The notes under the pieces are model-generated. The model did no database searches and had not been told where the DNA came from. It worked only from the letters and a program-made list of their open reading frames with translations. From positions 11,782 to 75,781 of the forward strand of contig CAZDFU010000002.1 in assembly GCA_964504985.1 (NCBI GenBank): a DNA stretch of 64,000 nt, given 5' to 3'. The translations under genes and the position numbers were made by a program. Below are positions 8,140-61,940 of the stretch, piece after piece (the first letter of the stretch is position 1; every line of letters begins with the position of its first letter). Source of the stretch: an uncultured Gammaproteobacteria bacterium. GTDB lineage: Bacteria; Patescibacteriota; Microgenomatia; Daviesbacterales; UBA10151.

Positions 8140-8991
8140 TTAATAGAGTTTGTTTATTCCCAAAATATCACCGTTTCCTAGATCTCTTTTTTTGGTTTCA
8201 CCCTCTGTTGCATAACCGTACATAGTTTCATCAATGCAACTGTTATATAGATCCCCCATACCCACACTATGACCAAGTTCATGGGTGGCAATATTATCAA
8301 AATCCATCTTCCCAGCTACCCCGCTGCTGTCAACTGACCAATCATAGCTTACATCATCATAAACCTGATCCCATTCCACCAGTTGTCTTTGCCAAACGGG
8401 CCCCCCAAAAATTCCCCAAATAATAGTCACTGCAATAGTATTTGAGTCTGCAACATCTGCAAAATAGACCTCATTTTGACCATCAGGTGAAACTGTATCA
8501 GCAACTAATTCTGCTGAGGTAGTAGCAGCCTGTCCTAATACATCAACGCCTAAATCATTTCCCACTACCCCATCTGTGGCATCTTCCCATTTGGATACTC
8601 CATTGCTTAATACAGCTGAAGCTGAGGCATAATCTATATTTCTCAAATTAGAAGGATTAAATACCCAAGGCTCAACAACCCTCCATTTTGCTCCACTGCT
8701 TAAATATGTATAACAGCTGCTAGATCCGCCTTTACCGCTGCCTGGTTTGGCTAAGTTTTGTTTAGGATGTACAATAGCCAAACCCTCAACCTGCTTACCG
8801 CTCACTGGGTCAATTGCATTACCCAAAGAGATCACATTAGAATGATTTGCAGAAGAAGGAAGCGTTAATGTTCTATTTGTACCAGGCGTGGAAAGTATAG
8901 CTGTCTGAAACGGAGTGGCTGCTAATGCTGAACTTACCAAAAACAGAAGGGAAGCACCTATTATAACACCACTCATCAATTTAACGGGCAT
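8140..8991 (-). CDS. Secreted zinc metalloprotease, metzincin-like (HELGHSVGMGD = HExxHxxGxxD, followed by a Met-turn ETMYGY); N-terminal signal peptide
   Basis: Hydrophobic N-terminus VIIGASLLFLVSSALAA; the HExxHxxGxxD motif with an Asp third ligand resembles snapalysin/matrixin-type zincins; inserted between rpsJ and rplC. Confidence 0.7.
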   Translation of the reverse strand: MPVKLMSGVIIGASLLFLVSSALAATPFQTAILSTPGTNRTLTLPSSANHSNVISLGNAIDPVSGKQVEGLAIVHPKQNLAKPGSGKGGSSSCYTYLSSGAKWRVVEPWVFNPSNLRNIDYASASAVLSNGVSKWEDATDGVVGNDLGVDVLGQAATTSAELVADTVSPDGQNEVYFADVADSNTIAVTIIWGIFGGPVWQRQLVEWDQVYDDVSYDWSVDSSGVAGKMDFDNIATHELGHSVGMGDLYNSCIDETMYGYATEGETKKRDLGNGDILGINKLY

Positions 8992-9059
8992 ATAAAATAT
9001 ATATCATAAATCTTTTCCAGGGTCAACCAAATGAAATTAAACAGATATGACACCACCTG

Positions 9060-9368
9060 TCACATCTTAACTTCAATGTCAACGCCTGCAGGGATTTCTA
9101 AATGCATTAAAGAATCAATTGTTTTTTGAGTAGGCTCAACAATGTCAACCATTCTTTTGTGTGTTTTTATTTCAAATGCTTCTCTGGAATCTTTATCTGT
9201 GTGTGGAGATCTTAAAACAGTAATTCTTTCTATTTTTGTGGGAAGGGGGATAGGACCAACAATTTTAGCACCGGTTCTTAAGGCTGTATCCAATAAGGAC
9301 TCACAGGTATTATCTAATACCCGGTGATCGTAACTTTTCAGTTTTACTCTGATCCGTCCTCTTGGCAT
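9060..9368 (-). CDS. rpsJ: 30S ribosomal protein S10 (uS10)
   Basis: [19 protein letters not shown]... canonical S10. Confidence 0.95.
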
Positions 9369-9427
9369 ATTTATAATCCTTTAGGGATCTCAACCTTTTA
9401 ATGTGCATTATAAGCTACTTAAGTAAC

Positions 9428-10612
9428 TTAGGCTATTATTTTGGTAATAACACCTGCTCCAACTGTTTTACCACCTTCACGGACTGCAAACCTTAAACCT
9501 TCTTCCATAGCAACGGGGGTAATTAATTTTCCGACAATTTTAACAGTATCTCCAGGCATAGCCATTTCAACACCCTCAGGTAATTGCACTTCACCAGTCA
9601 CATCAGTGGTTCTGACATAAAACTGTGGCCTGTAGCCTTTGAAAAATGGGGTATGTCTTCCGCCTTCTTCTTTGGAAAGAATGTATACTTCTGCTTCAAA
9701 TTCAGAGTGAGGAGTTATAGAACCCGGCTTTGCTAAAACCTGACCACGCTCAACATCATCTTTCTCAATACCCCGGAGTAAAATTCCAGCATTATCTCCT
9801 GCCTGACCTTCATCCAATAATTTATGGAACATTTCAATTCCTGTAACCACGCTCTTTTTAGTAGGCCTTATTCCAACAATTTCAATTTCCTCATTAACTT
9901 TAACTTTACCTCTCTCAATTCTTCCAGTCACCACTGTTCCACGTCCTTTAATAGAAAATACATCTTCAACTGCCATCAGGAATGGCTTATCCACATCTCT
10001 TACCGGAGTTGGAATCCATTCATCAACTTTAGCCATAAGTTCTTCAATAGCTTTAACTGACTCCGGATCACCTTCCAAAGCTTTTTTAGCAGAACCCCGG
10101 ATTATTGGAGATTGTGAGTCATATTCATATTTTTTAAGCAAATCCCTGACTTCTTCTTCTACAAGATCCAAAAGCTCAGGATCATCCACCTGATCAACTT
10201 TATTAAGGAAAACTACAATAGCAGGAACACCTACCTGGCGGGCTAAAAGCAAATGTTCTCTGGTTTGCGGCATTGGACCATCCGGTGCAGAAACTACCAA
10301 AATTGCTCCATCTGTTTGAGCAGCACCGGTAATCATGTTTTTGATATAGTCTGCATGACCAGGCATGTCAATATGGGCATAGTGTCTTTTTTCTGTTTCA
10401 TATTCCTGATGGGAAATATTAATGGTAATACCGCGGGCTTTTTCTTCTGGAGCGTTGTCTATTTGGTCAACAGAGCGGGCCTCTGCCAGACCTTTATCAG
10501 ATAATACTTTGGTAATAGCAGCAGTTAGGGTTGTTTTACCGTGGTCAACATGACCCATGGTTCCAACATTAACATGCGGTTTTGATCTATCAAATTTTTT
10601 TGCGTCAGCCAT
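9428..10612 (-). CDS. tuf: Elongation factor Tu
   Basis: Start placed at [29 protein letters not shown]; G1-G4 motifs present; 394 aa. Confidence 0.95.
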
Positions 10613-25209: not shown

Positions 25210-25851
25210 TCAAATCATTTTACCCAAAACAATAAGTCTTTTAAAATTTAATCCAGGAGGCACACAAGTCATCAAAGTTATATACCTGCCTTGTATTTCA
25301 GGAGCATTAATAACTGATATATCAGAAGGGTCAATTGCCTTCAAAGAAACAACCTGATATTTATACTTAGCCCCACTGGCCTCAATTATTATCTCATCAC
25401 CCTTTTTGAGATCTGTCAGGTTGGCAAAGAAAGCGGTTTTTAAACTAAAAAATTTGCTAAGGGCAGAATGGCCTGATATGAACACATTCCCTTTCTCGCC
25501 AGGCAAAGACGAACCTGGAAGATGAACCAATCCAGCTGATAAATCATTGCTGTCAACGAGAACTTGTACCTTATCTATCTTTAGCTTGGGAACTGATAAA
25601 ACAAATTCCTCATAGTTAGCTTTTGTTTCTCTTCTTAAACTTGAGATAATTGCTGGAAAGTTATTTTGTGTTTGGATGGATACGCCCAAAACCTGGGTAT
25701 CTTTTGTTTGCTTCGGACTAAAAAGTATCTGATTATTATAACCTTGTCCAATTAACCAAATTTGATATGAAATAATTGGCATAATTATCTGAATTAACAA
25801 AAATACTCCAATGAATAAAAAAGCAAGCGGTATTGCCTTCCCGAAAATCAT
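25210..25851 (-). CDS. Sortase family transpeptidase
   Basis: N-terminal TM; catalytic His in FISGHS; TLMTCVP active-site Cys motif; ATGA-coupled to the upstream 733-aa ORF. Confidence 0.8.
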   Translation of the reverse strand: MIFGKAIPLAFLFIGVFLLIQIIMPIISYQIWLIGQGYNNQILFSPKQTKDTQVLGVSIQTQNNFPAIISSLRRETKANYEEFVLSVPKLKIDKVQVLVDSNDLSAGLVHLPGSSLPGEKGNVFISGHSALSKFFSLKTAFFANLTDLKKGDEIIIEASGAKYKYQVVSLKAIDPSDISVINAPEIQGRYITLMTCVPPGLNFKRLIVLGKMI

Positions 25852-28052
25852 TACTTTAGCCCTACCCCAACCTTGATATTTTGACTCAGAATAGGAAGTC
25901 TTTGTAAAAATTTTGGCAGAGCAGGGGTAATCTTGATCTCAGATCCTAAAACATTCTCCATTCCCTTAAGGATATTTTCTGCTTCCGTTACCCCCTTACC
26001 TTGTATTTGGCTTTTTACTTTTGCCTCATCTATTTTAGGTAAAAGTTTTGCTTTAAACCGGGCCAAAAATATTAACTTACCATCCTTTTCTACCTTAGAA
26101 ACATCTGCCTGTGTTTCTGTATCTTCTAAATTGAGTTCAAAATCATTTGGAACATCAGTTGTTACAAGTTTTGATACAATTAATTTTAAGTCTTTATCTT
26201 CAAAAGCTGTCCCTTTATATTTGGTTGTTAAATTAAGAGAAAACTCTGATGCCTGATCATTGATATTTTTACTGAAAGTTTTTTTGACAATTTCCTCATT
26301 TAGGGCTTCTTCCAAAATCTTTTTATCAGATTCTGTTTCTTGTAATTTCTGTTGCGCTTGTTTTCTAAGTTTTGAACTCAATTCAGCAAGAAGCCTGTTT
26401 TGATCATCGCTTGAGACAACCACCACAGACTTTGAGGTTCCACCTGAAAAATTACCCTCTGCTTTAGCAGAAACCTGATTTGAAGAAAAACTACCCACGC
26501 TAAACTCTGAACCTGAGGGTAAGTTACCATCAGCACCCACAGCAGACGCTGTGACAGTAGCATTACTTTTACCATAAGTTATACCGCTGTCTGCAGCTGA
26601 TTGAGAAGCAATGGTGGCAGAGACATCAAGAGTAAATTTTAGACCTTTTGAAACAGTCAGGGTAGTTCCTTTACTTATTGACTTACTCTCGTTTGTTTTA
26701 TTATAAATAATCACTGTTCCTTTGGCTGGATCCCCAATTAGCTTACTGCCCGTTGCCTTATCCTTTAAAGAGTCTGAAACTTCTGTATTAACAATTTGCC
26801 CTGGAATTATTTTGGCCATTTCATCAACCAATTTTTGATTTGGGTCTGCCACCACGGTAGTATCTTTTTCCACCACCTTGGGTTCAACAAAGATTTTAAC
26901 TTCAGCTTTTGGCAACAGCACATATGCTGCAAAAGTTATAAGTAAGCCTAGAAAAACAATAACCAATAGAGCAAAACTCCCCCTCTTTCTTGGGATAAAC
27001 CTATTTAAAGTAAACAGTTTCTTCCCAGGCTTTTCTTCAAACTTTTCCGGTACAGTTAAATTTGTTTCTTGCGGGTCGGGCAACTCCTTTTCTTCTGCAA
27101 AATCTTCTTCCGGATTTACCAAATCTTCAGGCTCCTCTTCCTGAAGTTGTCCGGAGATGTCTCCTGCTACAAAACCAGAAAAATCCTGCTGGTTACTTTC
27201 TAACTTTTCCTTATCAACTTCTTCCTCATCCGCAAGTAAGGAGGATTTAACCGGATTTTGATCAATACCGGAGTTCTTTTCTTCCGTAATAGCTGAATCT
27301 GTATATAAAACATTACTTTCTAGTTCAGAAGCTCCTGCTAAACAAACGCTTTTTATTTCAATATCATCCTGAAGAGTATCTATCTTTGGAAAATGCAAAA
27401 AAGAGAGTTTAGACATCCAGGGAAACGACAGAAGCTGATTTTTTAATTCAGGAGCATTATCACCATAGATCAAAATTTTTGAGGGCAAGGTTTCAACAGC
27501 CGTAAAAACAAGCAATGCTTTCTCAATATCTGCTGCGCTGTTGTCTCCTCTGGAAACGGTTTTAACTCCATCAAGTTTTCCTGCCCTCACAACTGTTACT
27601 GTTAAATGGTGCGGTTCAAACCCCACTAAAATAGCAGTAGGGGGAACTCCATCAGTTTTTTCCAGTAAATGAATCAGGGCATTAGCACTTTCCACATATG
27701 CCATAGGAGTAAGCTCCAGCTCCTTAACTAAATCCCTTAACGCCTTTAAGCTGTCTTCCTTCAAATTTTCATCCTTAAGCCACGTGCTTGGGACACCAAA
27801 AAGGATTTTTTGCGGATCAACATCCCTTATTCCTAATACTGAATCTAAAAGTTTATCCGTAACTTTACTAAGCTCACTTAAAGAAGAATAGGTACCAGAG
27901 GCTGTTTCTAAAATTTTAAGCTGTTTTCCTTCAATCTGCCAAAGAGCAGCAATTAATTTCTCGTTGGAGATATTTACGGCAAAAAAATATTCTAAAACCT
28001 CTTCCTTTTTTGCAAAGGGCAGAAAGGCAGTTAATTTATCAGCAAAACTCAT
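25851..28052 (-). CDS. Bitopic membrane protein (733 aa): ~350-aa cytoplasmic N-domain, acidic linker, single TM, ~370-aa Ser/Thr-rich extracellular domain
   Basis: TM segment SFALLVIVFLGLLITFAAYVLL mid-protein; no signal peptide; stop overlaps the sortase start. Confidence 0.5.
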   Translation of the reverse strand: MSFADKLTAFLPFAKKEEVLEYFFAVNISNEKLIAALWQIEGKQLKILETASGTYSSLSELSKVTDKLLDSVLGIRDVDPQKILFGVPSTWLKDENLKEDSLKALRDLVKELELTPMAYVESANALIHLLEKTDGVPPTAILVGFEPHHLTVTVVRAGKLDGVKTVSRGDNSAADIEKALLVFTAVETLPSKILIYGDNAPELKNQLLSFPWMSKLSFLHFPKIDTLQDDIEIKSVCLAGASELESNVLYTDSAITEEKNSGIDQNPVKSSLLADEEEVDKEKLESNQQDFSGFVAGDISGQLQEEEPEDLVNPEEDFAEEKELPDPQETNLTVPEKFEEKPGKKLFTLNRFIPRKRGSFALLVIVFLGLLITFAAYVLLPKAEVKIFVEPKVVEKDTTVVADPNQKLVDEMAKIIPGQIVNTEVSDSLKDKATGSKLIGDPAKGTVIIYNKTNESKSISKGTTLTVSKGLKFTLDVSATIASQSAADSGITYGKSNATVTASAVGADGNLPSGSEFSVGSFSSNQVSAKAEGNFSGGTSKSVVVVSSDDQNRLLAELSSKLRKQAQQKLQETESDKKILEEALNEEIVKKTFSKNINDQASEFSLNLTTKYKGTAFEDKDLKLIVSKLVTTDVPNDFELNLEDTETQADVSKVEKDGKLIFLARFKAKLLPKIDEAKVKSQIQGKGVTEAENILKGMENVLGSEIKITPALPKFLQRLPILSQNIKVGVGLK

Positions 28053-37037: not shown

Positions 37038-39362
37038 TTATCTATTAAATCCGCCCCTACCGCCTCTGTCCCGTCCGCCACCCCGGTCTCTAAACCCTCC
37101 GCTTGGCCTATCTCCAAAATTTCTGCGGGGCCTATCTCCGAATCTTGGTCTAGCGCCTTCACGGAATGAGTCAGTAAAACCTCTTCTTTCTCTGGGTCTG
37201 AATCCACTGCCTGCTGGTCTAAACCCACCTGAAGATTCACCCTGCCCTCTGCCAAAGGGCCTGCCTTCTGATTCTGGTTTAATATCTGCTCCAAAAAGCA
37301 TTGACAAACCAATTTTTCCCTCAGGGGATACCTCAGTCACTCTAACTTTAACGTCTTGCCCCTCAGAAACTACATCTTCTACTTTTTCAACACGGCCTGG
37401 CGCCATTTGTGAAATATGAACCAAACCATCTTTACCAGGCAAAATATTAACAAAAGCCCCAAAAGGAGCCAGCCTGACAACTTTTCCCGTAAATTCCTCT
37501 CCCACTTTAACTTCTTTGAATTGACCCTCGATTGATTCCAGGGCTGCTTTTATTGAATCTGGGTTTGTGGCTGAAACCATCACAGTCCCATCATCTTCAA
37601 TATCAATCTGTGCTCCTGTTTTAGCGATGATTGCATTGATATTTTTGCCTCCTGGACCGATCAAGGCCCCTATTTCTTCTGGTTTGATATGAATAATTTC
37701 TACACGGGGCGCATGCGGTGACATTTCTCCAGGTGCAGGAATTGCCTTTGCCATCTCTGCCAAGATAAAATCACGGGCTTTTTTACCCATATTTAGTGCC
37801 TCTTGTATAATTTCAAAACTAATGCCTTCAAGTTTAGTATCCATTTGTATAGCAGTAACGCCGTTTTTGGTACCCGCCACCTTAAAGTCCATTTCACCGT
37901 AAAAATCTTCCACTGCCCGCATATCAGTAATCACCTGAAACTTTTTATCATTAGATATCAAACCTAAAGCTATACCGGCCACTGGTTCAATCGGAACACC
38001 AGCATCAAATAAAGCTAAACTGGAAGCACAAATTGCTGCTTGTGAAGTAGAGGCATTGGCTCCTAAAACTTCGGAGACAATTCTGATAGCATATGGGAAT
38101 TGACTTTCCTTAGGTATGACTGGTTCAAGGGCTTTTTCTCCTAAAGCCCCATGACCAACATCCCGTCTTGAGGGAGCACCGAGTCTTTTAACCTCCCCTG
38201 TTGCAAAAGGATTAATACTCATATTGTAATAATGCATAAAGCGCTTAATCCGCTCACCCTCCATTCCTTCAATTGTTTGTCCTAAAGAGGGAGCTCCTAG
38301 AGTAACTACTGATAATAATTGTGAATCGCCTCTGGAAAATAGAGCTGAGCCATGTGTCCTGGGCAATACCCCAACTTCTATATTAATTGGCCTAACTTCA
38401 TCCATAGCTCTGCCGTCAACCCTTTTACCCTGATTTAAAATTAAATCATGCATAATTTCCTTGGCAGCCTTGTCAAATACACCAGAGATTATTAAAGGGG
38501 TTAAAATGTCTGTATATTTTGTGGTAAGTTCTGCTTTTATCTGATCTGCCATTGAATCATGCCAGGCGGTTTTTTCATCAAATAAAGCTTTTTCAATCCG
38601 CTCCCTGGTAATTTGCTTAACTTCAACCAGCAAGGCTTCTTCAACTTCCTCAGCTATTGTTGAATAAGATTGTTTTTCTTTACCTGCCTCAGAAACAAAT
38701 TCCTCAATTAAAGATATTATTGGCTGAGAATGCTGATGAGCTTCTTTAATTGCATTAAAAACAATCTCATCTGAAACTTGATTTCCTTTAGTTTCAATCA
38801 TGGCCACTTTATCTTTTGTAGAAGCCACGAATAGATCTAAGTTAGAATTTTCCAGCTCTTCTATAGTGGGATTAATCATCAATTTTCCTTCTGCCTCTCC
38901 AATCCTGGCCACACCCAGAGGACCATGCCAGGGGATAGAGGATACAGATAAAGCTGCTGAGGCTGCAATTAAACCTAAAATATCCGGATCATTGGATTGA
39001 TCAATTGATAAAACAGTAATAATTACCTGTACTTCGTTATGATATTCCTTAGGAAAAAGGGGTCTGATGGAACGGTCAATCAGTCTGCCTGTTAAAACAG
39101 CCTCATCTGAAGGCCTGGTTTCCCGCTTAATAAATCTGGAAGAAGAAATCCTGCCTCCTGCGTAATGTTTCTCTACAAATTCAACTGAGAGGGGAAAATA
39201 ACCTATATCTTCAACCAGAGGCTTGCTGACTACTGTTGCTAGTACCACAGTTTCACCCCAAGACACCAAAACAGAAGCATCTGCCTGACTGGCCAGTCTG
39301 CCTGTTTCTAAACGTAATTTACGACCATTTAGGTCTAGTTCTTTTGTAACAATTTTTGACAT
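37038..39362 (-). CDS. pnp: Polynucleotide phosphorylase with C-terminal Arg/Gly-rich (RGG-like) tail
   Basis: Two RNase PH domains, KH and S1; tail ...GFRDRGGGRDRGGRGGFNR. Confidence 0.95.
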   Translation of the reverse strand: MSKIVTKELDLNGRKLRLETGRLASQADASVLVSWGETVVLATVVSKPLVEDIGYFPLSVEFVEKHYAGGRISSSRFIKRETRPSDEAVLTGRLIDRSIRPLFPKEYHNEVQVIITVLSIDQSNDPDILGLIAASAALSVSSIPWHGPLGVARIGEAEGKLMINPTIEELENSNLDLFVASTKDKVAMIETKGNQVSDEIVFNAIKEAHQHSQPIISLIEEFVSEAGKEKQSYSTIAEEVEEALLVEVKQITRERIEKALFDEKTAWHDSMADQIKAELTTKYTDILTPLIISGVFDKAAKEIMHDLILNQGKRVDGRAMDEVRPINIEVGVLPRTHGSALFSRGDSQLLSVVTLGAPSLGQTIEGMEGERIKRFMHYYNMSINPFATGEVKRLGAPSRRDVGHGALGEKALEPVIPKESQFPYAIRIVSEVLGANASTSQAAICASSLALFDAGVPIEPVAGIALGLISNDKKFQVITDMRAVEDFYGEMDFKVAGTKNGVTAIQMDTKLEGISFEIIQEALNMGKKARDFILAEMAKAIPAPGEMSPHAPRVEIIHIKPEEIGALIGPGGKNINAIIAKTGAQIDIEDDGTVMVSATNPDSIKAALESIEGQFKEVKVGEEFTGKVVRLAPFGAFVNILPGKDGLVHISQMAPGRVEKVEDVVSEGQDVKVRVTEVSPEGKIGLSMLFGADIKPESEGRPFGRGQGESSGGFRPAGSGFRPRERRGFTDSFREGARPRFGDRPRRNFGDRPSGGFRDRGGGRDRGGRGGFNR

Positions 39363-39527: not shown

Positions 39528-39797
39528 TCATTTAGACAATCCTAATTTATCTATGACAACTTTATATCTTTCTTCATCTTTTTTAACTAAATATTGAAGC
39601 AGCCTTCTTCTTTTATTAACCATAGACAAAAGCCCTCTTCTTGAATGTATGTCGTGAGTATGTTCTTTCAAATGACTGGTAAGATTTTTAATTTGTTCTG
39701 TTAAAAGAGCAACCTGAACTTCAGGAGAACCTGTATCACCAGATTTTGTGGCAAATTCTTTTATTATTTTCTGCTTAATTTTTGGATCAAGTGGCAT
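39528..39797 (-). CDS. rpsO: 30S ribosomal protein S15 (uS15)
   Basis: Start at [12 protein letters not shown] with AGGAGG 5 nt upstream; the ORF-track N-terminal extension is unlikely. Confidence 0.9.
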
Positions 39798-39892
39798 GGC
39801 ATCCTCCTTATTTTGGAATAACCTCGGTGCCAAGAAGTAATTCCTTAAACTTGTAGGCGTAGTTTATCAGAAAGGACTGGAATATGCAATAT

Positions 39893-42800
39893 CTACTTTA
39901 TTATTAAACGGAAGAGAACGAAACCACCCAGAAGCAGCACTACGATCACCATCACTACCTTAACATTAAAAGGCAAACCTTCTCCTGCTTTTTTTTGAGC
40001 TTGGGCTGCAGGCTGAGAACTTTCTGTTGCTTCACCTTGTACCTGACCCTGTTCACCAACACCAATATTACCCTGCTGATTTTCACCAGACACACCTAAC
40101 ACTCCAGAAGCAAATCCAACGGCTGTTGGTTGTATCGAGACTCCCAAAACCTGATTTTGCGGGGAGGTACTTCTAACGGAACAGTCATGGACTGCACAAC
40201 CTAATCCATCTCCACCATCACCTCCACTGCTTGAACTTGTGGAAGAAGTTGAGGTAGAAGTGGAACCAGTATGAGTAGTAGCATAGTATGAAGCCTTGGT
40301 GGCTTGGAATATACATAAACCATTACTTACTACACAGGTGGCAGGAGCTACAATCCCGTCAGATGTCCAGCCTGATGAAGTGCTGGAAGAACGGACTACA
40401 TTAAGTGTTTGTCCATTTAAAGCTGTTCCCACATAAATGTTTATAGTGATGGGACTGCTAAAACTTAACCCCAAATTAGGTATCCCCCATTGCATGGCCC
40501 CGTCAACCACCACTCCTGTCCCAAGTCCTGATAATGATCCTGTGGTGACATTTTGCGCGCTTAACAAAGACGTATCAATTAATCCCCCATCAGTTCTGGT
40601 AATAATAGTATTGGCTGGCAAAGATACGCTGCTTGTTCCGCCATTAACGCTGACGTTAATTGTGGAATCTCCCAAGACTACAATGGAAGAGGTTGAGCTC
40701 CCATCCCCGCTGGTGGGCACAAACTTGGCATCACTAAGCTGTTGGAAAGGAGCATTTCCAAACCTTAAAGGCTGGTCATTTTTATCCTTGGTAATTGAGG
40801 TTTCACCTTCCGTGGTCTGGCCACCAACTTCCACAAAAATATCAAAGAAGGAATCCACCTGAGGGTGGGTTCTTTGGAAATTATCCTGTGTGCTCTCAGT
40901 CATTCTATAAGTTCCCGGTTTATCTACCTCAAAAGAAGCTTTCCCATCATCATTGGTGGGAAGGATCCTTAGCCCCCCGTAGATAATTTCCTCGGTCATT
41001 ACCGGAGGTTGACCCTCAACCGGGTTAGGGGTTGAGGCGAGTGTTTTAATTGCTTCCTCTATCCTCATATCCCAGCCACCAATACCTAACTCACCTTTAT
41101 CCCATTCCCCATCTGCATTCAAATCTTTCCACTTAAAGATATCAATAATCACCTTCTTAAAATTACCAAAATCAATACCACTTACATCATTGCCTGATTG
41201 AGCCTCAATATCCGAAGGATTAGTAGTAGTCTGTATCCAGCCACTTTGTGAAGCTTCTCTCACTCTGTAAGTGCCGGGACGCAGATTATCAAGGCTGTAA
41301 CTGCCGTCTTCGCCTGTGGTAGCGGATTTCTCACCCTCATCAAAAACCCCGTTACTGTTTCCGTCGATAAAAATAGTCCAGCCGGACAATCTTTGGTCAG
41401 GATGATTAGGATCATTTGGATTATAAGAACCGTCAGCTATCATGTCCTCAAATTTCCAACCAGAGATAGTAATCTTTTTGAAATTTCCAAAATCATTATT
41501 TTCAGAATTCTCCCCTGCAGATAATGTTATCTCATATCCGTTTGTGCCATCCGGACAAATGGGGTTATTCAATGGGGTAGTTTGTGTCCAACCATCGAAG
41601 TTATCTGTACTGGTAGCGATATCCTCACAGACCCGATAAGTACCAGGTAAAAGATTTTCAAACAGATACTGTCCTGTATCTGCATCACCTGTCCAGGATT
41701 CCAAAGTTGTGTCATTATTTGGTCCACCGCTTAGGGTAATCCGCCAGCTATCTTCCTCCCACTCATTTTCTCTATCCCAGACCCCGTCTCCATTAGTGTC
41801 TATAAATTTATAGCCACTGATTGAGCCCCGCTTGGTGTTAGTAAAAGTACAGGTGATCGTTTCTCCGGTATTAGGTGTAATACTGTCGGGAGTATTGGTA
41901 CCGGTACAGGATGAACTGGTTAAATCCCAGCCCTCAGGAACATTCTCAGAAATACTGTAAGTATCGTCCGGATCAATATCAGTGAATGTTTGACTACCGC
42001 TGTTCGCTAATGTGGTTATCTGGGAAGAAGAAGCAGGCAGATTTTGACTGCTCATCTCAAAATCAAAAGTGTCATCACCTCCCAGAGTATTCTTCACTAA
42101 GACGATAGTGGCTAACTCTTTGTTGGTAAAAGTACAGGTAACAGTCTCACCGGCGCTGACATCAATTGCATCAACTGAGCTACCATCGCTACAAACGGCG
42201 CTGCTCAATTTCCATCCCGGCACTTCATCTTCTGAAACAGCATAGTTGCCGGGGAAAACTTCGGAGTCCTGGCTCTTTTTAAGCGTATTGGTTTCACTAC
42301 CGTCATCATCGAGCTGGAAGGTATCGGGGTTGCCGTTGCCAAAATTATTATGGAAGGTAAAATCCTGAGCGTTATTGGAAATGGCATCTTTGACAATAAC
42401 GACATGGCCATTAGGAATGACTGTAATGTCGAAGGTACGGGAGAAGAAGAGATCTAGGCTGTCAGTAGCTGTCACTGTAATAGTGGCTGTGCCACTGGAA
42501 TTGGCAACCGGCGTATAGGTCAGCGTTCGGGTAGCGCCGGAGCCGGAAACAGTCGGGTTTGGCACAACTGAAGCATCATTTGAGGTTGCAGACAAAATTA
42601 CTGTTTGATCAGATTCATCTGAGGGACCAGGGGAAATATTGGTGATGGTAATATTTTGTGCACCAACATCTTCATTAACTGTCTGGTTGGCAATTGCATC
42701 AAAAGACGGAGGGCGGTTATAGTTAACAGTGACATCTTGTAAAGTTGGAGTGGTATTAACAGTACCGGAAGTAGTTGCCCGCCACTGAAAATATTGATAC

Positions 42801-44200
42801 GTATCAGGCAAGGCGCTGCTTAAGTCTATTGGAGAGTTGGCTGATCCTAAAGATACCCAGGATGGACTAGTATCACCTTTGGCAAAAGCGGTATTTGATG
42901 CCCTAACTTCAAAAGTAATATCAGTTCCGGCAGCAAGACTTTCATTCCAGGATAAGGTTGAGTAAATAGTTGAGGTAGAGTTTGTATCTTTAACCTCTGA
43001 TATTTGAGTACCGCTGGTTCCGTATGTTTTATATTTTTCTGTAAAAATAAAATCATCCCCAAAATTAGTTGGCCAAGTAGAACCGCTATTGGTTGATTTA
43101 TATCCCCCTCCGCCAGTATAATCCGTGCTGCTGTTTTCACGGTACCAATCATAATCATCAGTGTCTGAGGTATTTGCCCGATGTACTACAATAGCGTATT
43201 GTGTGCCTGTGGTAACCGGGGCAGGTGAGGAAAAAACAAAGTTCACATTTCCCTTTGCGGTGGGAAGAGATGTAGGACTAACTGAGGCTGTTGCCAGGGG
43301 AGATGATGCGGTAGGTAAACCGCTGCTGGTGTTTCTAATTTCAACTGTCACATCTCCTGAACCATCATCGCTATTTTGTTTTCTTAGGCTTAAAGTTAAG
43401 CCAGTCAGCATTCCGTTTTGGGCAGGGGTGAAAGTTTGAGCTAACCATTTGGCACTGTCGAAAGTTTCTGCCGTTGTCCCTGTTGTTTGCAATTGATCAA
43501 CTATCTCTGAACCCAAGGCATTAGTCACACTGCCATCGCCACCTCCCACATCAGTGACAGTAGTTCCCGAAGAGGTTCCATTATTAAAATCTGTGACGGT
43601 GGTTACCACAAAGATAGTAAAATGGTTTAAACCTGTAATAGTGAGAGTATCTGTTTGGGCTGTTACTCCTCCTAAAGTAACAAAGGTCTGGTTATCTTCT
43701 GAGGCTTTAACCTCTACCTGTTCAGTTTTTGGGGTAGGCAAAGTTAAGGTATATTCAAAGGTACCATTTTCCATAGTAGAAGTGATATCATAAGCTTTGT
43801 CTGTCACAGGGTTTAAATTGTCATCTCCCAGGGAATTTACAGGTACTTCTTTAATTGAGATTTTGCCCGGGTTGGAAGGAAGTTTATTGAATTTTAATGT
43901 TACTTTATCATTTTGCGGAGCTTTGTATAATTGGTCAATCCTGACGTTTTCATGGGTGATGGCTATACCGCCGGGCCCATTATCCCAATCCAATACAGAT
44001 AAGGAAGCTGGCTCAACTGCTACAGCAGGAGAAACTGTTGCCGAAGCTGTAGACTCAAAAGATGTGTCTAAAACAACCTGACTATTTAACTGAGCAGAAG
44101 TAGTGGCTTCCTGGGCCAGAACCGGGAAAGTATATTGCCCAAACAATAATAAAAAGACAGTAATTAAACTAAACGCCTTTTTTAAACCTTTAAAAAACAT
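39893..44200 (-). CDS. Giant cell-surface repeat protein (1435 aa): signal peptide, Ser/Thr-rich regions, paired ...GETxTCTFTN prealbumin-like modules, several SdrD-B-type repeats (PGTYRVxE), C-terminal TM anchor
   Basis: N-terminal signal LITVFLLLFGQYTFPVLAQE; repeats GYKFIDTNGDGVWD...PGTYRVCE and GWKFEDMIADGSYN...PGTYRVRE; C-terminus VVMVIVVLLLGGFVLFRLIIK. Confidence 0.75.
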   Translation of the reverse strand: MFFKGLKKAFSLITVFLLLFGQYTFPVLAQEATTSAQLNSQVVLDTSFESTASATVSPAVAVEPASLSVLDWDNGPGGIAITHENVRIDQLYKAPQNDKVTLKFNKLPSNPGKISIKEVPVNSLGDDNLNPVTDKAYDITSTMENGTFEYTLTLPTPKTEQVEVKASEDNQTFVTLGGVTAQTDTLTITGLNHFTIFVVTTVTDFNNGTSSGTTVTDVGGGDGSVTNALGSEIVDQLQTTGTTAETFDSAKWLAQTFTPAQNGMLTGLTLSLRKQNSDDGSGDVTVEIRNTSSGLPTASSPLATASVSPTSLPTAKGNVNFVFSSPAPVTTGTQYAIVVHRANTSDTDDYDWYRENSSTDYTGGGGYKSTNSGSTWPTNFGDDFIFTEKYKTYGTSGTQISEVKDTNSTSTIYSTLSWNESLAAGTDITFEVRASNTAFAKGDTSPSWVSLGSANSPIDLSSALPDTYQYFQWRATTSGTVNTTPTLQDVTVNYNRPPSFDAIANQTVNEDVGAQNITITNISPGPSDESDQTVILSATSNDASVVPNPTVSGSGATRTLTYTPVANSSGTATITVTATDSLDLFFSRTFDITVIPNGHVVIVKDAISNNAQDFTFHNNFGNGNPDTFQLDDDGSETNTLKKSQDSEVFPGNYAVSEDEVPGWKLSSAVCSDGSSVDAIDVSAGETVTCTFTNKELATIVLVKNTLGGDDTFDFEMSSQNLPASSSQITTLANSGSQTFTDIDPDDTYSISENVPEGWDLTSSSCTGTNTPDSITPNTGETITCTFTNTKRGSISGYKFIDTNGDGVWDRENEWEEDSWRITLSGGPNNDTTLESWTGDADTGQYLFENLLPGTYRVCEDIATSTDNFDGWTQTTPLNNPICPDGTNGYEITLSAGENSENNDFGNFKKITISGWKFEDMIADGSYNPNDPNHPDQRLSGWTIFIDGNSNGVFDEGEKSATTGEDGSYSLDNLRPGTYRVREASQSGWIQTTTNPSDIEAQSGNDVSGIDFGNFKKVIIDIFKWKDLNADGEWDKGELGIGGWDMRIEEAIKTLASTPNPVEGQPPVMTEEIIYGGLRILPTNDDGKASFEVDKPGTYRMTESTQDNFQRTHPQVDSFFDIFVEVGGQTTEGETSITKDKNDQPLRFGNAPFQQLSDAKFVPTSGDGSSTSSIVVLGDSTINVSVNGGTSSVSLPANTIITRTDGGLIDTSLLSAQNVTTGSLSGLGTGVVVDGAMQWGIPNLGLSFSSPITINIYVGTALNGQTLNVVRSSSTSSGWTSDGIVAPATCVVSNGLCIFQATKASYYATTHTGSTSTSTSSTSSSSGGDGGDGLGCAVHDCSVRSTSPQNQVLGVSIQPTAVGFASGVLGVSGENQQGNIGVGEQGQVQGEATESSQPAAQAQKKAGEGLPFNVKVVMVIVVLLLGGFVLFRLIIK

Positions 44201-44274
44201 TTTATCTGACTAATAGCCAGATATTATCCTATAAAGAGGAGATAAAGCAATAAGGGATTTCTGGGATAACAAAA

Positions 44275-45348
44275 TTATCCTAAAGATGACCCTTTGAAGA
44301 TTTTGGGGGTCAACCATTCTGGTTCAACTGTCTCGGAAATCACCCCTTCTTCTGCTGGTCTTTCTTCAGGAGAAGGTTGCGCTGAAAATGAAGGCTGTGA
44401 TTGTGTAACAGTTTCATGGTCACCTGCATCAGCCACAGGCTGAGAAGGAGCAGTTGAAGCAAGTGAAGAAGCTGCAAAGTCAGGAATGCTTTGTACTTGC
44501 CCTTGAGACTGATTTTTTGGCATTAAGGCACTCCAATCATAAGCTTGGGTAACTGGTTGCGGTTGAGACACTGGAGTTGTAAATGTTTGCGAACCTGGTT
44601 TCCTGCTGCCAACTCTTAACAAAGTTGCAACAGCCATATAAGCTTCAGGTCCCAGATTGGGATTTGTTAAATTACTTGTAGCTTCAAAGATTCCTGCTAA
44701 TAAGTTACTTCCTGCATCTGCGTCTAAAGTAAAACCCAAGTCAGAAATCACATTAGTCATTACCTCAGAAACAGAAGAAGCATTGTTATCCGCTACATTA
44801 GTTTGACCAAAATTGGTGTTAGCAGGTTGAATATCAATATTCACAATATGAGAACCGGAGAAAGCTTGACTATTGTTCTGATAAATTTGACCCAAAGCAT
44901 TTAAATTGGCAGCACCTATTACAAAAATTAAATTAAAACCACTGCCTTGATAGTGCGGGACAATCCTTCTTGGCTGGAAAGTCTGACCAGGTAAAACATG
45001 AAAGACTAAATTTAAGTTACTGTTTTCTGCATACCAGTCTAATTTTTCTAAAGCAGGTACAGTATTATCTGAAGCAGCTACCCCTTCTAAAGTTAGGGTT
45101 AAATTTCCACCCTCTGTAACAGGCAAAGTTTTTTGTATATGATCTATTCCAAAAAGATGAGACTGGCCAACTGTTATATCTGTCTCACAAACAACGCTTA
45201 CTTGCTTACCTGAGGCTTCTGATACCAAAAATAAAGCAAGTCCTGAAGCTAAGGTATCAATTGAAGCATTAGAAGGTAAAGCAATTAAGATGCTTTTGGC
45301 AGTTGGGAGTAAATTCTTAAGCTCAACAAGCTGTGAGTCGTATTTCAT
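44275..45348 (-). CDS. DHH-family (NrnA-like) paralogue with degenerate catalytic motifs (IDHH replaced by IDIQ) and a low-complexity C-terminus in place of DHHA1
   Basis: SHIVNIDIQPANTNFG aligns to NrnA motif III vvIDHHxsNxxFG; motif I region LPSNASIDTLASGLAL; conserved post-infB position. Confidence 0.55.
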   Translation of the reverse strand: MKYDSQLVELKNLLPTAKSILIALPSNASIDTLASGLALFLVSEASGKQVSVVCETDITVGQSHLFGIDHIQKTLPVTEGGNLTLTLEGVAASDNTVPALEKLDWYAENSNLNLVFHVLPGQTFQPRRIVPHYQGSGFNLIFVIGAANLNALGQIYQNNSQAFSGSHIVNIDIQPANTNFGQTNVADNNASSVSEVMTNVISDLGFTLDADAGSNLLAGIFEATSNLTNPNLGPEAYMAVATLLRVGSRKPGSQTFTTPVSQPQPVTQAYDWSALMPKNQSQGQVQSIPDFAASSLASTAPSQPVADAGDHETVTQSQPSFSAQPSPEERPAEEGVISETVEPEWLTPKIFKGSSLG

Positions 45349-59622: not shown

Positions 59623-60207
59623 ATGCCCAAACAAAAGAGCCTTAAACTTGGTATACACCTGGATTTACTAAGGCCTCAAAGTAATCCTGAACAACTTTTA
59701 ACAAAACTTTTGCGTTGGTTGCTCTCTACCGGTCGCTACATATTTGTCTTTGTGGAAGCTCTGGTTTTAATAGTTTTTATTGCCAGGTTCAAATTAGATG
59801 AGGAGTTAGCTTTAAAAAAAGAAACAATTGAGAGCCAGATTCCCTATATTGAGAGTCTAAAACCTTTTGAACTCTTGGCAAGGCAGACCCAGCTTAAGCT
59901 AACAACTATTTCCTCCCTCCGTAGATCTGGTGCTGACTATCCTCTGGTTTTAAAAAACATTGCCGATCAAACTCCCATGGGGATAACAATCGGCAGTATC
60001 AGGATGGAAAAAACCGCCCAGCAGGTAATTATCCAATTAAATGGCATTGCTCCAAATAATGGCGATTTGGCTAACTTCTTAAGCGGATTAAAACAAGAAC
60101 CGCTCCTTTCAGATGTTAGTATTACCAGTGTTGGTTTTGATAAAGGCAGTTTAAATTTCAGCATAACAGCCAAGTCAAAGGCCTCTGCTGCGGGGAGCAA
60201 TCTATGA
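59623..60207 (+). CDS. pilN: Type IV pilus assembly protein PilN-like
   Basis: Short cytoplasmic N-terminus with an INLLP-like motif (IHLDLLRP), one TM, coiled coil, ~110-aa C-domain; ATGA-coupled to the next gene. Confidence 0.55.
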   Translation: MPKQKSLKLGIHLDLLRPQSNPEQLLTKLLRWLLSTGRYIFVFVEALVLIVFIARFKLDEELALKKETIESQIPYIESLKPFELLARQTQLKLTTISSLRRSGADYPLVLKNIADQTPMGITIGSIRMEKTAQQVIIQLNGIAPNNGDLANFLSGLKQEPLLSDVSITSVGFDKGSLNFSITAKSKASAAGSNL

Positions 60208-60809
60208 GAAGTCAATCTCAAATCTACTCCAGGTATTTTACTTATATAAAACCCTTTATTAGACACCCTTTTGTTAGAACTTACGGCTCAACGGTTTTTA
60301 CGCTTTTGGTTATGAGCATCCTCATAGTGTATGCCATCAAACCAACTGTGGAAACTATTTTAGTTTTGCAAAAGAAACTGGCTGACTCGAATGAAGTTGC
60401 GGAAAAGATTACCCAGAAGACAAACAACTTATCAAAAGCTCAAGAAAATTATGCCAATTTGGATCCAGATATTAAATCTAAAATTGAGACAGCCATACCT
60501 GATAGCGTTTCACTTAAATCGCTTATGCAGACACTTGAACAAACTGCCAAAAAATATGAGGCTTCAGTTTCTGCGTTGCAAATCCAGCCATTAGTTTTGG
60601 AGGCTAAAACAGATGAAAAAGTGGGCAGTCTTTCGGATGTTTCTTTTACCCTCAGCGCTGAGGGAGAGTATCAAAAAATAATTTCTATATTGCAGGATTT
60701 GATGGTTAGTGATAGGTTAATTTCGATAGACAATGTATCCTTATCAAAGCTAAGCGAAGGATCAGGGATCGCTATATCCCTTTCCGGAAAAGCCTATTAT
60801 ATTAAATAA
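60204..60809 (+). CDS. pilO: Type IV pilus assembly protein PilO-like
   Basis: TM plus coiled coil plus C-terminal domain (FTLSAEGEYQKIISILQDLMVSDRLISIDNVSL, PilO-like). Confidence 0.55.
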   Translation: MRSQSQIYSRYFTYIKPFIRHPFVRTYGSTVFTLLVMSILIVYAIKPTVETILVLQKKLADSNEVAEKITQKTNNLSKAQENYANLDPDIKSKIETAIPDSVSLKSLMQTLEQTAKKYEASVSALQIQPLVLEAKTDEKVGSLSDVSFTLSAEGEYQKIISILQDLMVSDRLISIDNVSLSKLSEGSGIAISLSGKAYYIK

Positions 60810-60816
60810 TTTCAAT

Positions 60817-60993
60817 ATGATAAAAAAAGAATGGTTGATTTTGGCAATTATAACTTTTATCACAATCTCTGCCTGGGTGATATTTGATATATTCCACGCC
60901 CGCGCCCGCGTTGAAATCTCTCCGAAAGTACAGGAGGCAATTGAACCCTTAAACCCAGAGTTTGATATTTCAGGGCTTAAGACTGCACCATGA
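60817..60993 (+). CDS. Small single-TM protein (58 aa), not in ORF track; stop overlaps the next start (ATGA)
   Basis: Manual translation MIKKEWLILAIITFITISAWVIFDIFHARARVEISPKVQEAIEPLNPEFDISGLKTAP. Confidence 0.4.
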   Translation: MIKKEWLILAIITFITISAWVIFDIFHARARVEISPKVQEAIEPLNPEFDISGLKTAP

Positions 60994-61940
60994 ATGATTT
61001 TCTAAGCAAGTTCAGGATCCCCACTCTTTTAGGACTTGGTATTATAATTTCTGCAATAACAGCAGGTGTATTCTTAGTTTTAAAAGAACAAACTATTACC
61101 TCTCAGGCCTCACCTAACCTGACGGTTCAAAATATCACCCTGACCAACCTTTCGGATGACTCAGCAACCATTTTTTGGCAAACTTCTGCTGCCCTGCCTT
61201 CTTTTATAACCTTAGGTTCTCAAAATCCCAGTGAAACCACCATTTTAGATGACAGAGACACCATTCCCGCCTCAGACAATGCAGGACCAAAGGCCCGTTT
61301 ATTACACTATGCCACCATAAAAAATCTTCTTCCTAAAACAACTTACCGCTATAAAATTACCTCTGGAAACTCATCTTCAGATACTTTTGAGTTTACCACT
61401 GCTGCGCCGCTTAACTTTCAAACAGGACAAAGACCGGTTATAGGGTCTGTGCTTGATGGAGACAAACCGCTTGCAGAGGCTGTAGCTATTCTTTCTATCA
61501 CTAACGCAGCTACGCAATCTGCTTTAATCAAAGAGGATGGTAATTTTTTAATACCTATATCTCAAGTCAGGAAAGCAGATCTTTCCGAAGGCATATCTTT
61601 AACAGAAAACACCACTGCCAAATTAACTATTTTGTCTACAAAAGGACAGGCTGCTGCCATTTTTAGGCTAGCTGACTTTGAAAACGGACTGCCTCCTATT
61701 GTTTTGGGAGAAAATCTGGATCTTACTTCTTTGAAGGAGAATTTAACTAAGTATGATTTAAATGCGGATGGCGGAATAAACTCAACAGATTATTCAATTG
61801 TTTTTCAAAATCTAGGCCCTTTGCGTGAAGCCTTTCCACAACGTAAACAAGTAGGTAAAAATCCTAAAGCTGATTTAAACTCGGACGGAGTTGTTGATCA
61901 GAAAGATTTGGATCTGATTTCAAAACAAATTAACAAGTGA
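60990..61940 (+). CDS. Membrane-anchored protein with fibronectin type III-like domain and C-terminal type I dockerin repeats
   Basis: N-terminal TM; Fn3-like segment SDDSATIFWQTS...TYRYKITSGNSSSDTFEFTTA; Ca-binding loops DLNADGGINSTD and DLNSDGVVDQKD. Confidence 0.65.
   Translation: MNDFLSKFRIPTLLGLGIIISAITAGVFLVLKEQTITSQASPNLTVQNITLTNLSDDSATIFWQTSAALPSFITLGSQNPSETTILDDRDTIPASDNAGPKARLLHYATIKNLLPKTTYRYKITSGNSSSDTFEFTTAAPLNFQTGQRPVIGSVLDGDKPLAEAVAILSITNAATQSALIKEDGNFLIPISQVRKADLSEGISLTENTTAKLTILSTKGQAAAIFRLADFENGLPPIVLGENLDLTSLKENLTKYDLNADGGINSTDYSIVFQNLGPLREAFPQRKQVGKNPKADLNSDGVVDQKDLDLISKQINK

Follow-up and report, generated by a model that had tools for sequence, protein, structure and literature searches.

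Why does the gene for a large, apparently secreted repeat protein lie among the housekeeping genes of a bacterium of the candidate phyla radiation (CPR)? The question is raised by a 64,000-nt stretch (the window) of contig CAZDFU010000002.1, from Candidatus Daviesbacteria (Patescibacteria/CPR). CPR bacteria are thought to live attached to other microbes, and few of the surface proteins by which they attach are known. At 39893–44200 on the minus strand of the window, an uninterrupted open reading frame (ORF) runs from ATG to TAG over 1435 codons plus the TAG and gives a 1435-residue product. The ORF list and the translation bear out exactly the coordinates and length assigned by an earlier reading of this DNA from its letters (the sequence-only reading), and the identical protein is present in the public collection as P0001 (NCBI contig). 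We consider it likely that the product of this gene, here called the target, is as a whole a Sec-exported fibrillar surface adhesin carried as accessory cargo. It would be a clear example of a CPR surface protein with a Ca-stiffened, Gram-positive-style stalk, a head like those of phage receptor-binding proteins, and end modules related to the autoproteolytic, force-sensitive GAIN and MAIN domains. Its main value lies in these two end modules, which are a membrane-proximal domain that reads as a MAIN-related base lacking the catalytic His, and an unannotated N-terminal family that carries the GAIN/MAIN cleavage motif.

Predicted export signal, head and stalk

All the features of the target described here are on the minus strand. 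The N-terminus reads MFFKGLKKAFSLITVFLLLFGQYTFPVLA followed by QE, with the positively charged n-region (MFFKGLKK), hydrophobic h-region and c-region with V-L-A site of a predicted signal peptide (residues 1–29, 44114–44200). The homologues found by BLASTP have an equivalent hydrophobic segment, followed by A-[QE]-E. A Ser/Thr/Ala/Pro-rich linker (residues 30–69, 43994–44113), which differs in length among homologues, then leads into the N-terminal module discussed below.

What does the head resemble? An AF2 (AlphaFold2) model of residues 60–610, made with family alignments, is a chain of beta-sandwiches with a predicted local distance difference test score (pLDDT) of 80–93 over about residues 229–489. 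The head region, residues 204–500 (42701–43591), comprises a jelly-roll/lectin-like domain and a beta-sandwich, and has no Pfam match. Foldseek against the PDB gave phage phi812 baseplate proteins as the best matches to the head-region model (E 6e-11), and other matches were a chlorovirus capsid protein, the Cwp84 lectin-like domain, SraP and SGBP-B. In BFVD, 56 matches reached E ≤ 1e-3; the foremost were phage tail and baseplate proteins, DUF4815, VrlC-like and minor tail proteins. The fold of residues ~204–500 resembles that of phage tail and baseplate receptor-binding proteins (phi812, DUF4815, VrlC-like; Foldseek probability 1.0, E down to 3e-11), at 10–17% identity and with low TM-scores (0.2–0.35), which are low because the model holds several domains. 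The target has no phage context, however: its gene has housekeeping neighbours, and the protein carries a predicted signal peptide and transmembrane (TM) anchor.

The head is followed by a cadherin-like Ig domain (residues 501–597, NRPPSFDAI...TITVTATD, 42410–42700). This stretch of the target has no Pfam match itself; it matches by BLASTP the repeats of proteins with precomputed cadherin-like Pfam assignments (such as PF17963, PF17892 and PF17803), and it forms beta-strands in the AF2 model at moderate pLDDT. The stalk begins with two SpaA_4/SpaA_2 prealbumin-like (CnaB-type) domains (residues 598–795, 41816–42409), each ending in GET[VI]TCTFTN, near residues 696 and 795. Lys (VIVK/VLVK), Glu and Asn (TFTN) are placed at the expected strands, so that Lys–Asn isopeptide bonds may form in these SpaA-like domains. 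Three SdrD_B/SpaA-type domains come next (residues 796–1095, 40916–41815), each with a PGTYR[VM]xE module after a D-x-N-x-[DN]-G-x-x-D loop; the predicted Ca-binding loops are DTNGDGVWD, DGNSNGVFDEGE and DLNADGEWDKGE. The scores exceed the Pfam gathering cut-offs for SpaA_4 (PF24514, 67.6 bits against 27.3, in two stretches), SpaA_2 (PF19403, 33.8 against 25), SpaA (PF17802, 49.3 against 23.1) and SdrD_B (PF17210, 43.1 against 29.7, in two stretches). The first 600 and last 340 residues of the target have no Pfam or NCBIfam match, and the N-terminal and C-terminal regions have no sequence link to solved structures.

These domain families and the Ca-binding DxNxDG loops are those of the Gram-positive fibrillar adhesins and MSCRAMMs, such as SdrD, Cna and the SpaA-type pilins, and the target has a similar layout of N-terminal head, repeat stalk and C-terminal anchor. 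Unlike these proteins, it has no LPXTG and no adhesive A-region recognised by Pfam, and its head is phage-tail- or lectin-like; there is also no pilin motif and no adjacent pilus sortase. The sequence-only reading had described an adhesin-like, secreted and anchored repeat protein, and the SdrD_B and SpaA stalk and the absence of LPXTG agree with this. The signal peptide, the Ser/Thr-rich stretches (present as linkers), the paired GETxTCTFTN modules and the SdrD-B-type Ca-binding repeats (at least three) that it listed are all seen in the translation, and the domain search that it proposed placed all four of the above families over their cut-offs. What it overlooked are the GAIN/MAIN-related modules at both ends of the protein. 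Some points count against the adhesin reading. The TM-scores of the head are low, as noted; no ligand can be named; and the signal-peptide and TM calls come from reading of the sequence, hydropathy and the AF2 helix rather than from a dedicated predictor.

The two end modules

Bacteria and archaea have GAIN_B-like autoproteolytic domains, called MAIN (Brogan & Rudner, bioRxiv 10.64898/2026.05.12.724683). Self-cleavage of MAIN and GAIN domains at HX(S/T), with a hydrophobic X, in the last beta-turn has been shown experimentally, and it occurs after HF of the HFS motif in B. subtilis YfkN. In virtually all MAIN proteins the order is signal peptide, ectodomain, MAIN and anchor (bioRxiv 10.64898/2026.05.12.724683). 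MAIN proteins and the eukaryotic GAIN/ZU5 proteins resemble the target in being large secreted, anchored proteins with adhesion domains and with a ZU5/GAIN-like sandwich next to the anchor. They also have HX(S/T) with a hydrophobic X at the last beta-turn, as does the N-terminal module of the target, while some relatives of the target have HFT at the canonical place. Unlike the MAIN proteins, the target has K-A-S for H-F-T in its canonical-position domain, carries its motif-bearing module at the extreme N-terminus, and is anchored by a TM helix rather than by LPXTG or SLH; the likeness described here is one of fold and motif. The target is also from a CPR bacterium, a group that the MAIN paper does not mention.

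The N-terminal 'HFT' module (residues 70–203, 43592–43993) is an all-beta domain of about 135 residues that ends ...LTITGLN-H193-F194-T195-IFVVTT, with the HFT encoded at 43616–43624. A profile built from 24 members was searched against 1.84e9 representative proteins, and it matched 810 clusters (50% identity) at E ≤ 1e-3, 455 of them at E ≤ 1e-30. The matches then fall off sharply, and the module family is therefore tight. In all 172 module-bearing proteins examined the module is N-terminal, directly after a signal peptide and linker, and starts within the first 233 residues (median 125). Every one of the 171 complete instances has H-[FLM]-[TS] (HFT in 167, HLT in 2, HMT in 1 and HFS in 1), at an overall identity within the family of about 45%. 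The AF2 model of the module has 11 strands, including 185–189 and 193–199, and places the motif at the turn before the last strand.

Does this module cleave itself? That it does so between F194 and T195, in the manner of GAIN and MAIN, has in our judgement about even chances. We take this as the best reading because of the motif and its place in the last hairpin, because the context is that of an extracellular adhesin, and because other HFT-type domains co-occur: module-bearing proteins often carry them at the canonical membrane-proximal place. The wider proposal, that the module is a self-cleaving GAIN/MAIN-type domain in inverted topology which defines a CPR family of 810 clusters, is offered tentatively. 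It is also possible, though in our view doubtful, that H-F-T has a purely structural role, in a tip module that is an ordinary beta-sandwich, such as a binding domain, and does not cleave. Several results weigh against self-cleavage, and they are to a large extent those expected of such an ordinary sandwich. The pLDDT of the module is only 36–73. The module has no Pfam, NCBIfam or PDB-sequence match; Pfam on the 24 N-terminal modules gave scattered sub-threshold matches and no consistent family; and in these searches no sequence or profile similarity links it to known GAIN, MAIN or ZU5 domains or to the other HFT domain types. A common origin with the C-terminal domain was rejected (hhalign probability 0.05%). 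The assignment to the GAIN/MAIN fold therefore comes from the motif, its hairpin position and the context, with no profile link, and a ZU5 match (3kbu_C, probability 0.97) came from a search with a multi-domain model and is not assignable to the module. Furthermore, the module is not between ectodomain and anchor, which reverses the order reported for virtually all MAIN proteins. A purely structural role, however, does not readily account for conservation in 171 of 171 instances of a domain that is otherwise about 45% identical, for substitutions limited to those that the catalytic motif tolerates (L or M for F, S for T), for the placing of the motif at the turn before the last strand, or for the frequent presence in the same proteins of HFT-type domains at the canonical place.

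The other end module is a membrane-proximal beta-sandwich of ZU5/GAIN_B-like fold (residues 1150–1314, 40259–40753). The AF2 model of residues 1085–1435 shows a 13-strand sandwich at about 1152–1314, with pLDDT 86–97 over most of it, then a disordered linker and then a helix. Foldseek with the sandwich gave ankyrin ZU5 (probability 0.98–1.0, E 6e-3) and the GAIN domains of BAI3, BAI2 and CD97 (probability 0.7–0.97), so that on the AF2 model residues 1150–1314 are a GAIN_B/ZU5-like sandwich; the E-values of these matches, 6e-3 to 6e-2, are modest, which counts against the assignment. The last hairpin reads ...CIFQAT-K1302-A1303-S1304-YYATT and thus has no HX(S/T). In the target and its closest relatives this hairpin is T-[KRSL]-A-S-[YF]-[YF]-A, with an invariant T, A and S and with K, R, S or L in place of the His. 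Other relatives have, at the equivalent position, domains ending in '...DTKIvT[FY]HFTSF' or in '...DLVIWTKHFTKF'. These two types are homologous to each other (hhalign 99.9%), and the domain of the target aligns with the DTKIvT[FY]HFTSF type at a hhalign probability of 84–90% (E ~1e-6). The sandwich is about 100 residues before the TM helix, between ectodomain and anchor as in MAIN, and the HFT homologues are likewise placed in the relatives. From its sequence, the domain reads as MAIN-related without the canonical catalytic base. It most likely acts as a fixed base rather than as a breakable joint.

Two further types of H-x-T domain, ending in '...LSFTAxHFTQFD' and '...IsAtLqHLTPIVP', are found inside relatives (P0016, P0026, P0030, P0031, P0037, P0045, P0046, P0083 and P0172; P0144, P0148, P0175 and P0197). 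Neither has profile similarity to the other types, and there may be several distinct HX(S/T) sandwich families in CPR surface proteins.

The sandwich is followed by a disordered Ser/Thr/Gly linker (residues 1315–1404, 39989–40258, pLDDT 30–50), with the motifs LGCAVHDCS and GFA[SP]GVLG common to homologues. Within residues 1315–1370 (about 40091–40258) these represent two short motifs that are widely conserved among CPR surface proteins. One, G[LK]GC[AG]xHDCS, alternates with an fn3 domain in other family members; the other is GF[AEQT][PASE]GVLG, and LPxTG-bearing relatives have a similar VLG motif 2–6 residues ahead of LPxTG.

The C-terminal tail (residues 1405–1435, 39896–39988) reads ...GEGLPFNVK-VVMVIVVLLLGGFVLF-RLIIK, with LPFNVK at 1409–1414, a hydrophobic TM segment at 1415–1430 and the positively charged end RLIIK; the AF2 helix covers residues 1413–1434. 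Eleven relatives share a tail of [ST]P[FLIV]N[AVFI]K, a hydrophobic stretch with LLLGGFGxF, and [RK]xxxK. A hidden Markov model of the tail scores 59–75 bits, on family members alone, in 1.47 Mb of Daviesbacteria DNA. The sequence-only reading was right that the protein ends in a TM helix and basic residues with no LPXTG, and mistaken in taking this for a plain anchor, as the [ST]P[FLIV]NxK and LLLGGFGxF[RK]xxxK module is conserved in the 11 relatives.

In the architecture that we propose, the C-terminal TM helix with its lineage-specific [ST]P[FLIV]NxK motif would hold the adhesin in the membrane, and the disordered linker above it would be long enough to cross the wall. Next outward would be the ZU5/GAIN_B-like sandwich, which has lost the catalytic His and is probably a fixed base, then the stalk, with its three Ca-binding SdrD_B and two SpaA-like CnaB domains, and beyond it the cadherin-like domain. 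The jelly-roll head, with its phage tail/receptor-binding protein fold, most likely has as its ligand a glycan or protein on the surface of another cell. At the tip would be the 135-residue module with the invariant H-F-T in its last beta-turn, and self-cleavage between F194 and T195 would leave it as a noncovalently bound cap. The analysis establishes the ORF, its domains, the synteny, how the motifs are conserved and how the C-terminal domain resembles known folds; export, topology, binding and self-cleavage are deduced. The cap would have about 165 residues and hold the adhesin through a buried strand, TIFVVTT, with which the adhesin would then start. If the N-terminal hydrophobic segment stays in the membrane, the N-terminal linker could be a wall-spanning tether; the protein would then be tied at both ends, with a breakable joint at the N-terminus and a fixed joint, the His-less domain, at the C-terminus. 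Relatives with HFT in both domains could shed the whole adhesion array under load. This would be a force-gated attach-and-release device for epibiotic cells. If the N-terminal module does self-cleave, then self-cleaving joints extend to a large unannotated CPR family, in a topology so far unreported, and they provide a testable handle on how CPR cells attach and let go.

The locus and the family

The gene order is dnaK-dnaJ-nusA-infB (short, 487 aa)-357 aa-target-rpsO-pnp-AAA (Lon-lid ATPase)-RNase J-FtsK, which agrees with the position between a DHH-family gene and rpsO given by the sequence-only reading. The upstream neighbour, p357 (44275–45348, minus strand), encodes a 357-residue degenerate DHH/NrnA-like protein; in about 65 Daviesbacteria loci it is conserved as the gene that closes the nusA-infB string. 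As a single sequence p357 has no Pfam match. A profile of 13 orthologues matched the DHH/DHHA1 proteins TM1595, NrnA and Rv2837c in the PDB (E 1e-11 to 1e-7, over positions 136–259 only), so the DHH label assigned from sequence was correct at the profile level. The catalytic Asp-His-His appears to be lacking: at the position assigned by eye the window has ...VNIDIQP... and the orthologue consensus is NIDN. The protein also has a long Pro/Gln-rich C-terminal extension ending in a conserved WL[TV]PKIFKGxSLG. A 74-nt spacer with no evident Shine-Dalgarno sequence (44201–44274) separates this gene from the target. A scan for promoter and terminator consensus sequences around the target gave nothing above the shuffled expectation; a weak TTGCTT-16-GATAAT upstream is visible by eye only, and we do not claim it as a promoter.

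Is the target an addition to this gene string? The relatives compared were PNPase-anchored loci from GTDB species genomes, nearly all Candidatus Daviesbacteria or Patescibacteria without a name, and they have kept the string dnaJ-nusA-infB-p357-rpsO-pnp-AAA-RNase J. Between the stop codon of p357 and the start codon of rpsO there are 85–249 bp in 32 of the 65 loci measured (mode about 90), 0.38–1.0 kb in 18 and 1.0–4.9 kb in 15; in the window there are 4477 bp. The extra DNA at this junction differs by genome, and includes a PIN/antitoxin pair, a 657-residue HExxH protein, a FemAB-like gene (named from sequence only), a recurrent 118-residue minus-strand gene and others. This comparison of related genomes, which the sequence-only reading had called for, thus finds p357 close to rpsO in 32 of the 65 loci and unrelated cargo in others, and supports the conclusion that the target is extra relative to the ancestral gene order. 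The surprise expressed earlier at its location is not borne out. More than 500 bp of extra DNA is present at p357-rpsO in 29% of loci, and as often at dnaJ-nusA (35%), infB-p357 (31%) and pnp-AAA (35%); the corresponding figures are 11% at rpsO-pnp, 4% at nusA-infB and 0% at AAA-RNase J. With four junctions holding extra DNA of unrelated kinds in 29–35% of relatives, the placement of the target is ordinary, and accessory genes between housekeeping units are the norm.

The target had also been described as lying inside a housekeeping operon, and this must be revised. Whether the junction is occupied or empty, the ~90 nt ahead of rpsO are conserved and comprise TTGCAT and, 17 nt further on, a TA[GAC]A[AC]T box, then a leader and a Shine-Dalgarno sequence. 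In the window this region (39797–39890, minus strand; alignment of 7 rpsO upstream regions) has TTGCAT at 39884–39889, the 17-nt spacer and TAAACT at 39861–39866, and the −35 starts 4 nt past the target stop codon. The leader, AGAGCAACGTCTTGGCACCGAGGTTGT[TC]TCAG, is shared across Daviesbacteria (L004, L006, L013, L014, L022 and L031), and its 5′ end has diverged in the window. Since rpsO has its own conserved promoter downstream of the target, in all relatives whether the junction is occupied or empty, the target is at the boundary of two transcription units. It thus fills the space left between the nusA-infB-DHH-like unit and the rpsO promoter, which in related species is empty or holds other genes. 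The more modest lesson of the placement is that small, co-directional CPR genomes keep variable genes, for surface proteins and toxin-antitoxin systems, where housekeeping transcription units meet. The leader has no Rfam match and its hairpin is no more stable than that of shuffled sequence; it may be an S15 autoregulatory leader.

The recurrent gene of about 118 residues (MPQKFYKHKLLLDEGFFYK...) is in opposite orientation directly upstream of rpsO in five genomes (L019:8829-9185, L020:8956-9324, L034:2800-3180, L035:8925-9281 and L037:8902-9285, all on the minus strand). It is 52–84% identical between loci and may be a toxin-antitoxin component.

The 80 homologues of the target compared by BLASTP form a mosaic. 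The N-terminal ~200 residues, the C-terminal domain (about 1150–1310) and the tail are common to many of them, and the middles differ, with pectate-lyase-like repeats, lamin-tail, fn3, Big_1/invasin and cadherin-like arrays. From these sequences, family members appear to exchange their middle domains and keep both end modules. All named members are CPR (Daviesbacteria, Amesbacteria, Parcubacteria, Dojkabacteria and Moraniibacteria). One homologue, P0004, is encoded directly after a p357 orthologue (61.7% identity) and is a positional orthologue with a different middle. In L013, a C-terminal half 59% identical to that of the target is directly before rpsO. In L026, a frameshifted and internally deleted family remnant (8617-9462) lies between p357 and rpsO; what is left of it, in three different frames, is the signal peptide with the first part of the N-terminal module, the C-terminal domain core, and the tail with GFAPGVLG and the TM segment. 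Family members thus occur at the p357-rpsO junction in at least two other lineages at 49–59% identity, and the occupancy is therefore old. The best full-length homologues, P0002, P0003, P0005 and P0006 (loci L085, L003, L001 and L002), are encoded just upstream of a 205-residue LexA gene. This lexA site, usually with a VTT-domain gene next, is a second recurrent home of the family; the window holds no lexA. The metagenome-assembled genome of L026 also holds a full-length paralogue, P0006, next to lexA.

The genes around the junction have different closest relatives. The PNPase of the window (pnp, 37038–39362) is 81–87% identical to those of L004-L009, L047, L070, L072 and L078 and about 70% to those of L013, L014 and L022, whereas its S15 (97–99%) and RNase J (82%) are closest to L013, L014 and L022. 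This mismatch suggests mosaic ancestry or uneven rates around the junction.

The anchor and alternative readings

The proteins that share the N-terminal module end in different ways: [ST]P[FLIV]NxK and TM in 11, a plain TM and basic tail in 60, an amphipathic FFG...LFGR tail in 5, LPxTG and TM in 11, and no recognised ending or truncation in 85. The anchor is therefore an exchangeable module. By a regular-expression scan, LPxTG-like signals are absent from the window and from the 1.47 Mb of related Daviesbacteria loci. The window does encode a sortase, at 25210–25851, which passes the general sortase model and no class model. Like the C-terminal sorting domains (LPXTG, PEP-CTERM, PGF-CTERM, GlyGly-CTERM and others), the tail of the target combines a motif, a hydrophobic helix and a basic end, and occurs on differing cargo. 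Unlike them, [ST]P[FLIV]NxK has no NCBIfam model match and no partner enzyme identified, and it is seen in 11 members.

Could the target then be a sortase substrate with a non-canonical signal, so that the sortase 14 kb away cleaves within [ST]PFNxK and links the protein to peptidoglycan or polymerises it? With no LPxTG protein in the window or the related DNA, the unclassed sortase has no obvious client there, and a variant signal is conceivable. The tail is tripartite, like cell-wall sorting signals, its conservation exceeds the need of a plain TM segment, and other proteins with the same N-terminal module have real LPxTG and TM signals. However, the tail has an invariant Asn (Asp in one sequence) where sortase motifs have the P1 Thr, and to our knowledge all characterised sortase motifs have Thr at P1. 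The TM segment is strongly conserved (LLLGGFGxF), a trait seen more typically in signals of the exosortase or rhombosortase type than in those of sortases. Nor are the genes linked, as the sortase gene is beside alaS, ruvX and mltG, and no NCBIfam sorting-domain model matches the tail. We regard sortase processing of the target as improbable. Another alternative to a specific adhesin is that the target could be a structural envelope or S-layer-like protein, or a spacer that builds a surface coat. Pfam recognises no enzymatic or known ligand-binding domain in it, the family is large and variable in architecture, and CPR cells carry many giant repeat proteins, all of which such a role would fit. 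It is not what would be expected of a gene that most relatives lack at this locus and that has decayed in L026, nor of a head folded like lectins and like the receptor-binding and tail proteins of phages; stalk, head and anchor together are the established layout of fibrillar adhesins. A role in the envelope is thus an unlikely one for the target.

A recent arrival by horizontal transfer on a mobile element, or a role as the variable target of a diversity-generating retroelement (DGR), is the least credible of the alternatives, and we think it very improbable. The G+C content of the target is 0.42–0.46, slightly above the 0.36–0.41 of the neighbour genes, the GC skew flips in its 5′ half, the locus varies among relatives, and a bAvd-like gene is encoded 2 kb from the homologue P0005. 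The rise in G+C and the skew flip, however, fit the Thr/Ser/Gly/Ala-rich composition of the protein, all close homologues are from Daviesbacteria or other CPR, and the occupancy of the junction is old. The scanned ORFs of the 64-kb window include no integrase, transposase or reverse transcriptase, and no repeat of ≥40 nt in the window involves the target. Insertion of a mobile element was rejected, since there are no flanking repeats and the two spacers around the target show no convincing duplication. The sequence-only reading had proposed a check for DGR elements; the scanned ORFs of the window include no reverse transcriptase, template/variable (TR/VR) repeats were found neither in the window nor beside the bAvd-like gene of L001, and a DGR target is rejected for the available sequence. 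The gene in question (L001:15916-16284) encodes a bAvd / 23S-rRNA-IVP-like four-helix bundle, with no reverse transcriptase called near it. The reading that we prefer is that of a fibrillar adhesin held by its TM tail.

Ten module-bearing proteins (P0041, P0069, P0094, P0096, P0119, P0130, P0142, P0179, P0195 and P0198) have a non-terminal LPxTG, TM and basic signal, always 350–385 residues before the C-terminus. After it come, in all ten, a further hydrophobic segment, a region rich in beta structure and a last TM helix; these proteins may be the products of fused or mis-joined genes or may have a two-part anchor.

The sortase gene of the window (25210–25851) begins where a 733-residue gene (25851–28052) ends, and the pair lies between alaS and ruvX-mltG. 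In the 733-residue protein, which has no sorting signal, a single TM segment near residue 370 separates a cytoplasmic N-terminal half from an extracellular part, and the latter has a weak Baseplate_J-like match. Elsewhere in the window, at 59623–61940, PilN-like and PilO-like genes and, after them, the gene of a 316-residue protein with purple-acid-phosphatase-N (fn3-like) and type I dockerin domains are among the few genes on the plus strand.

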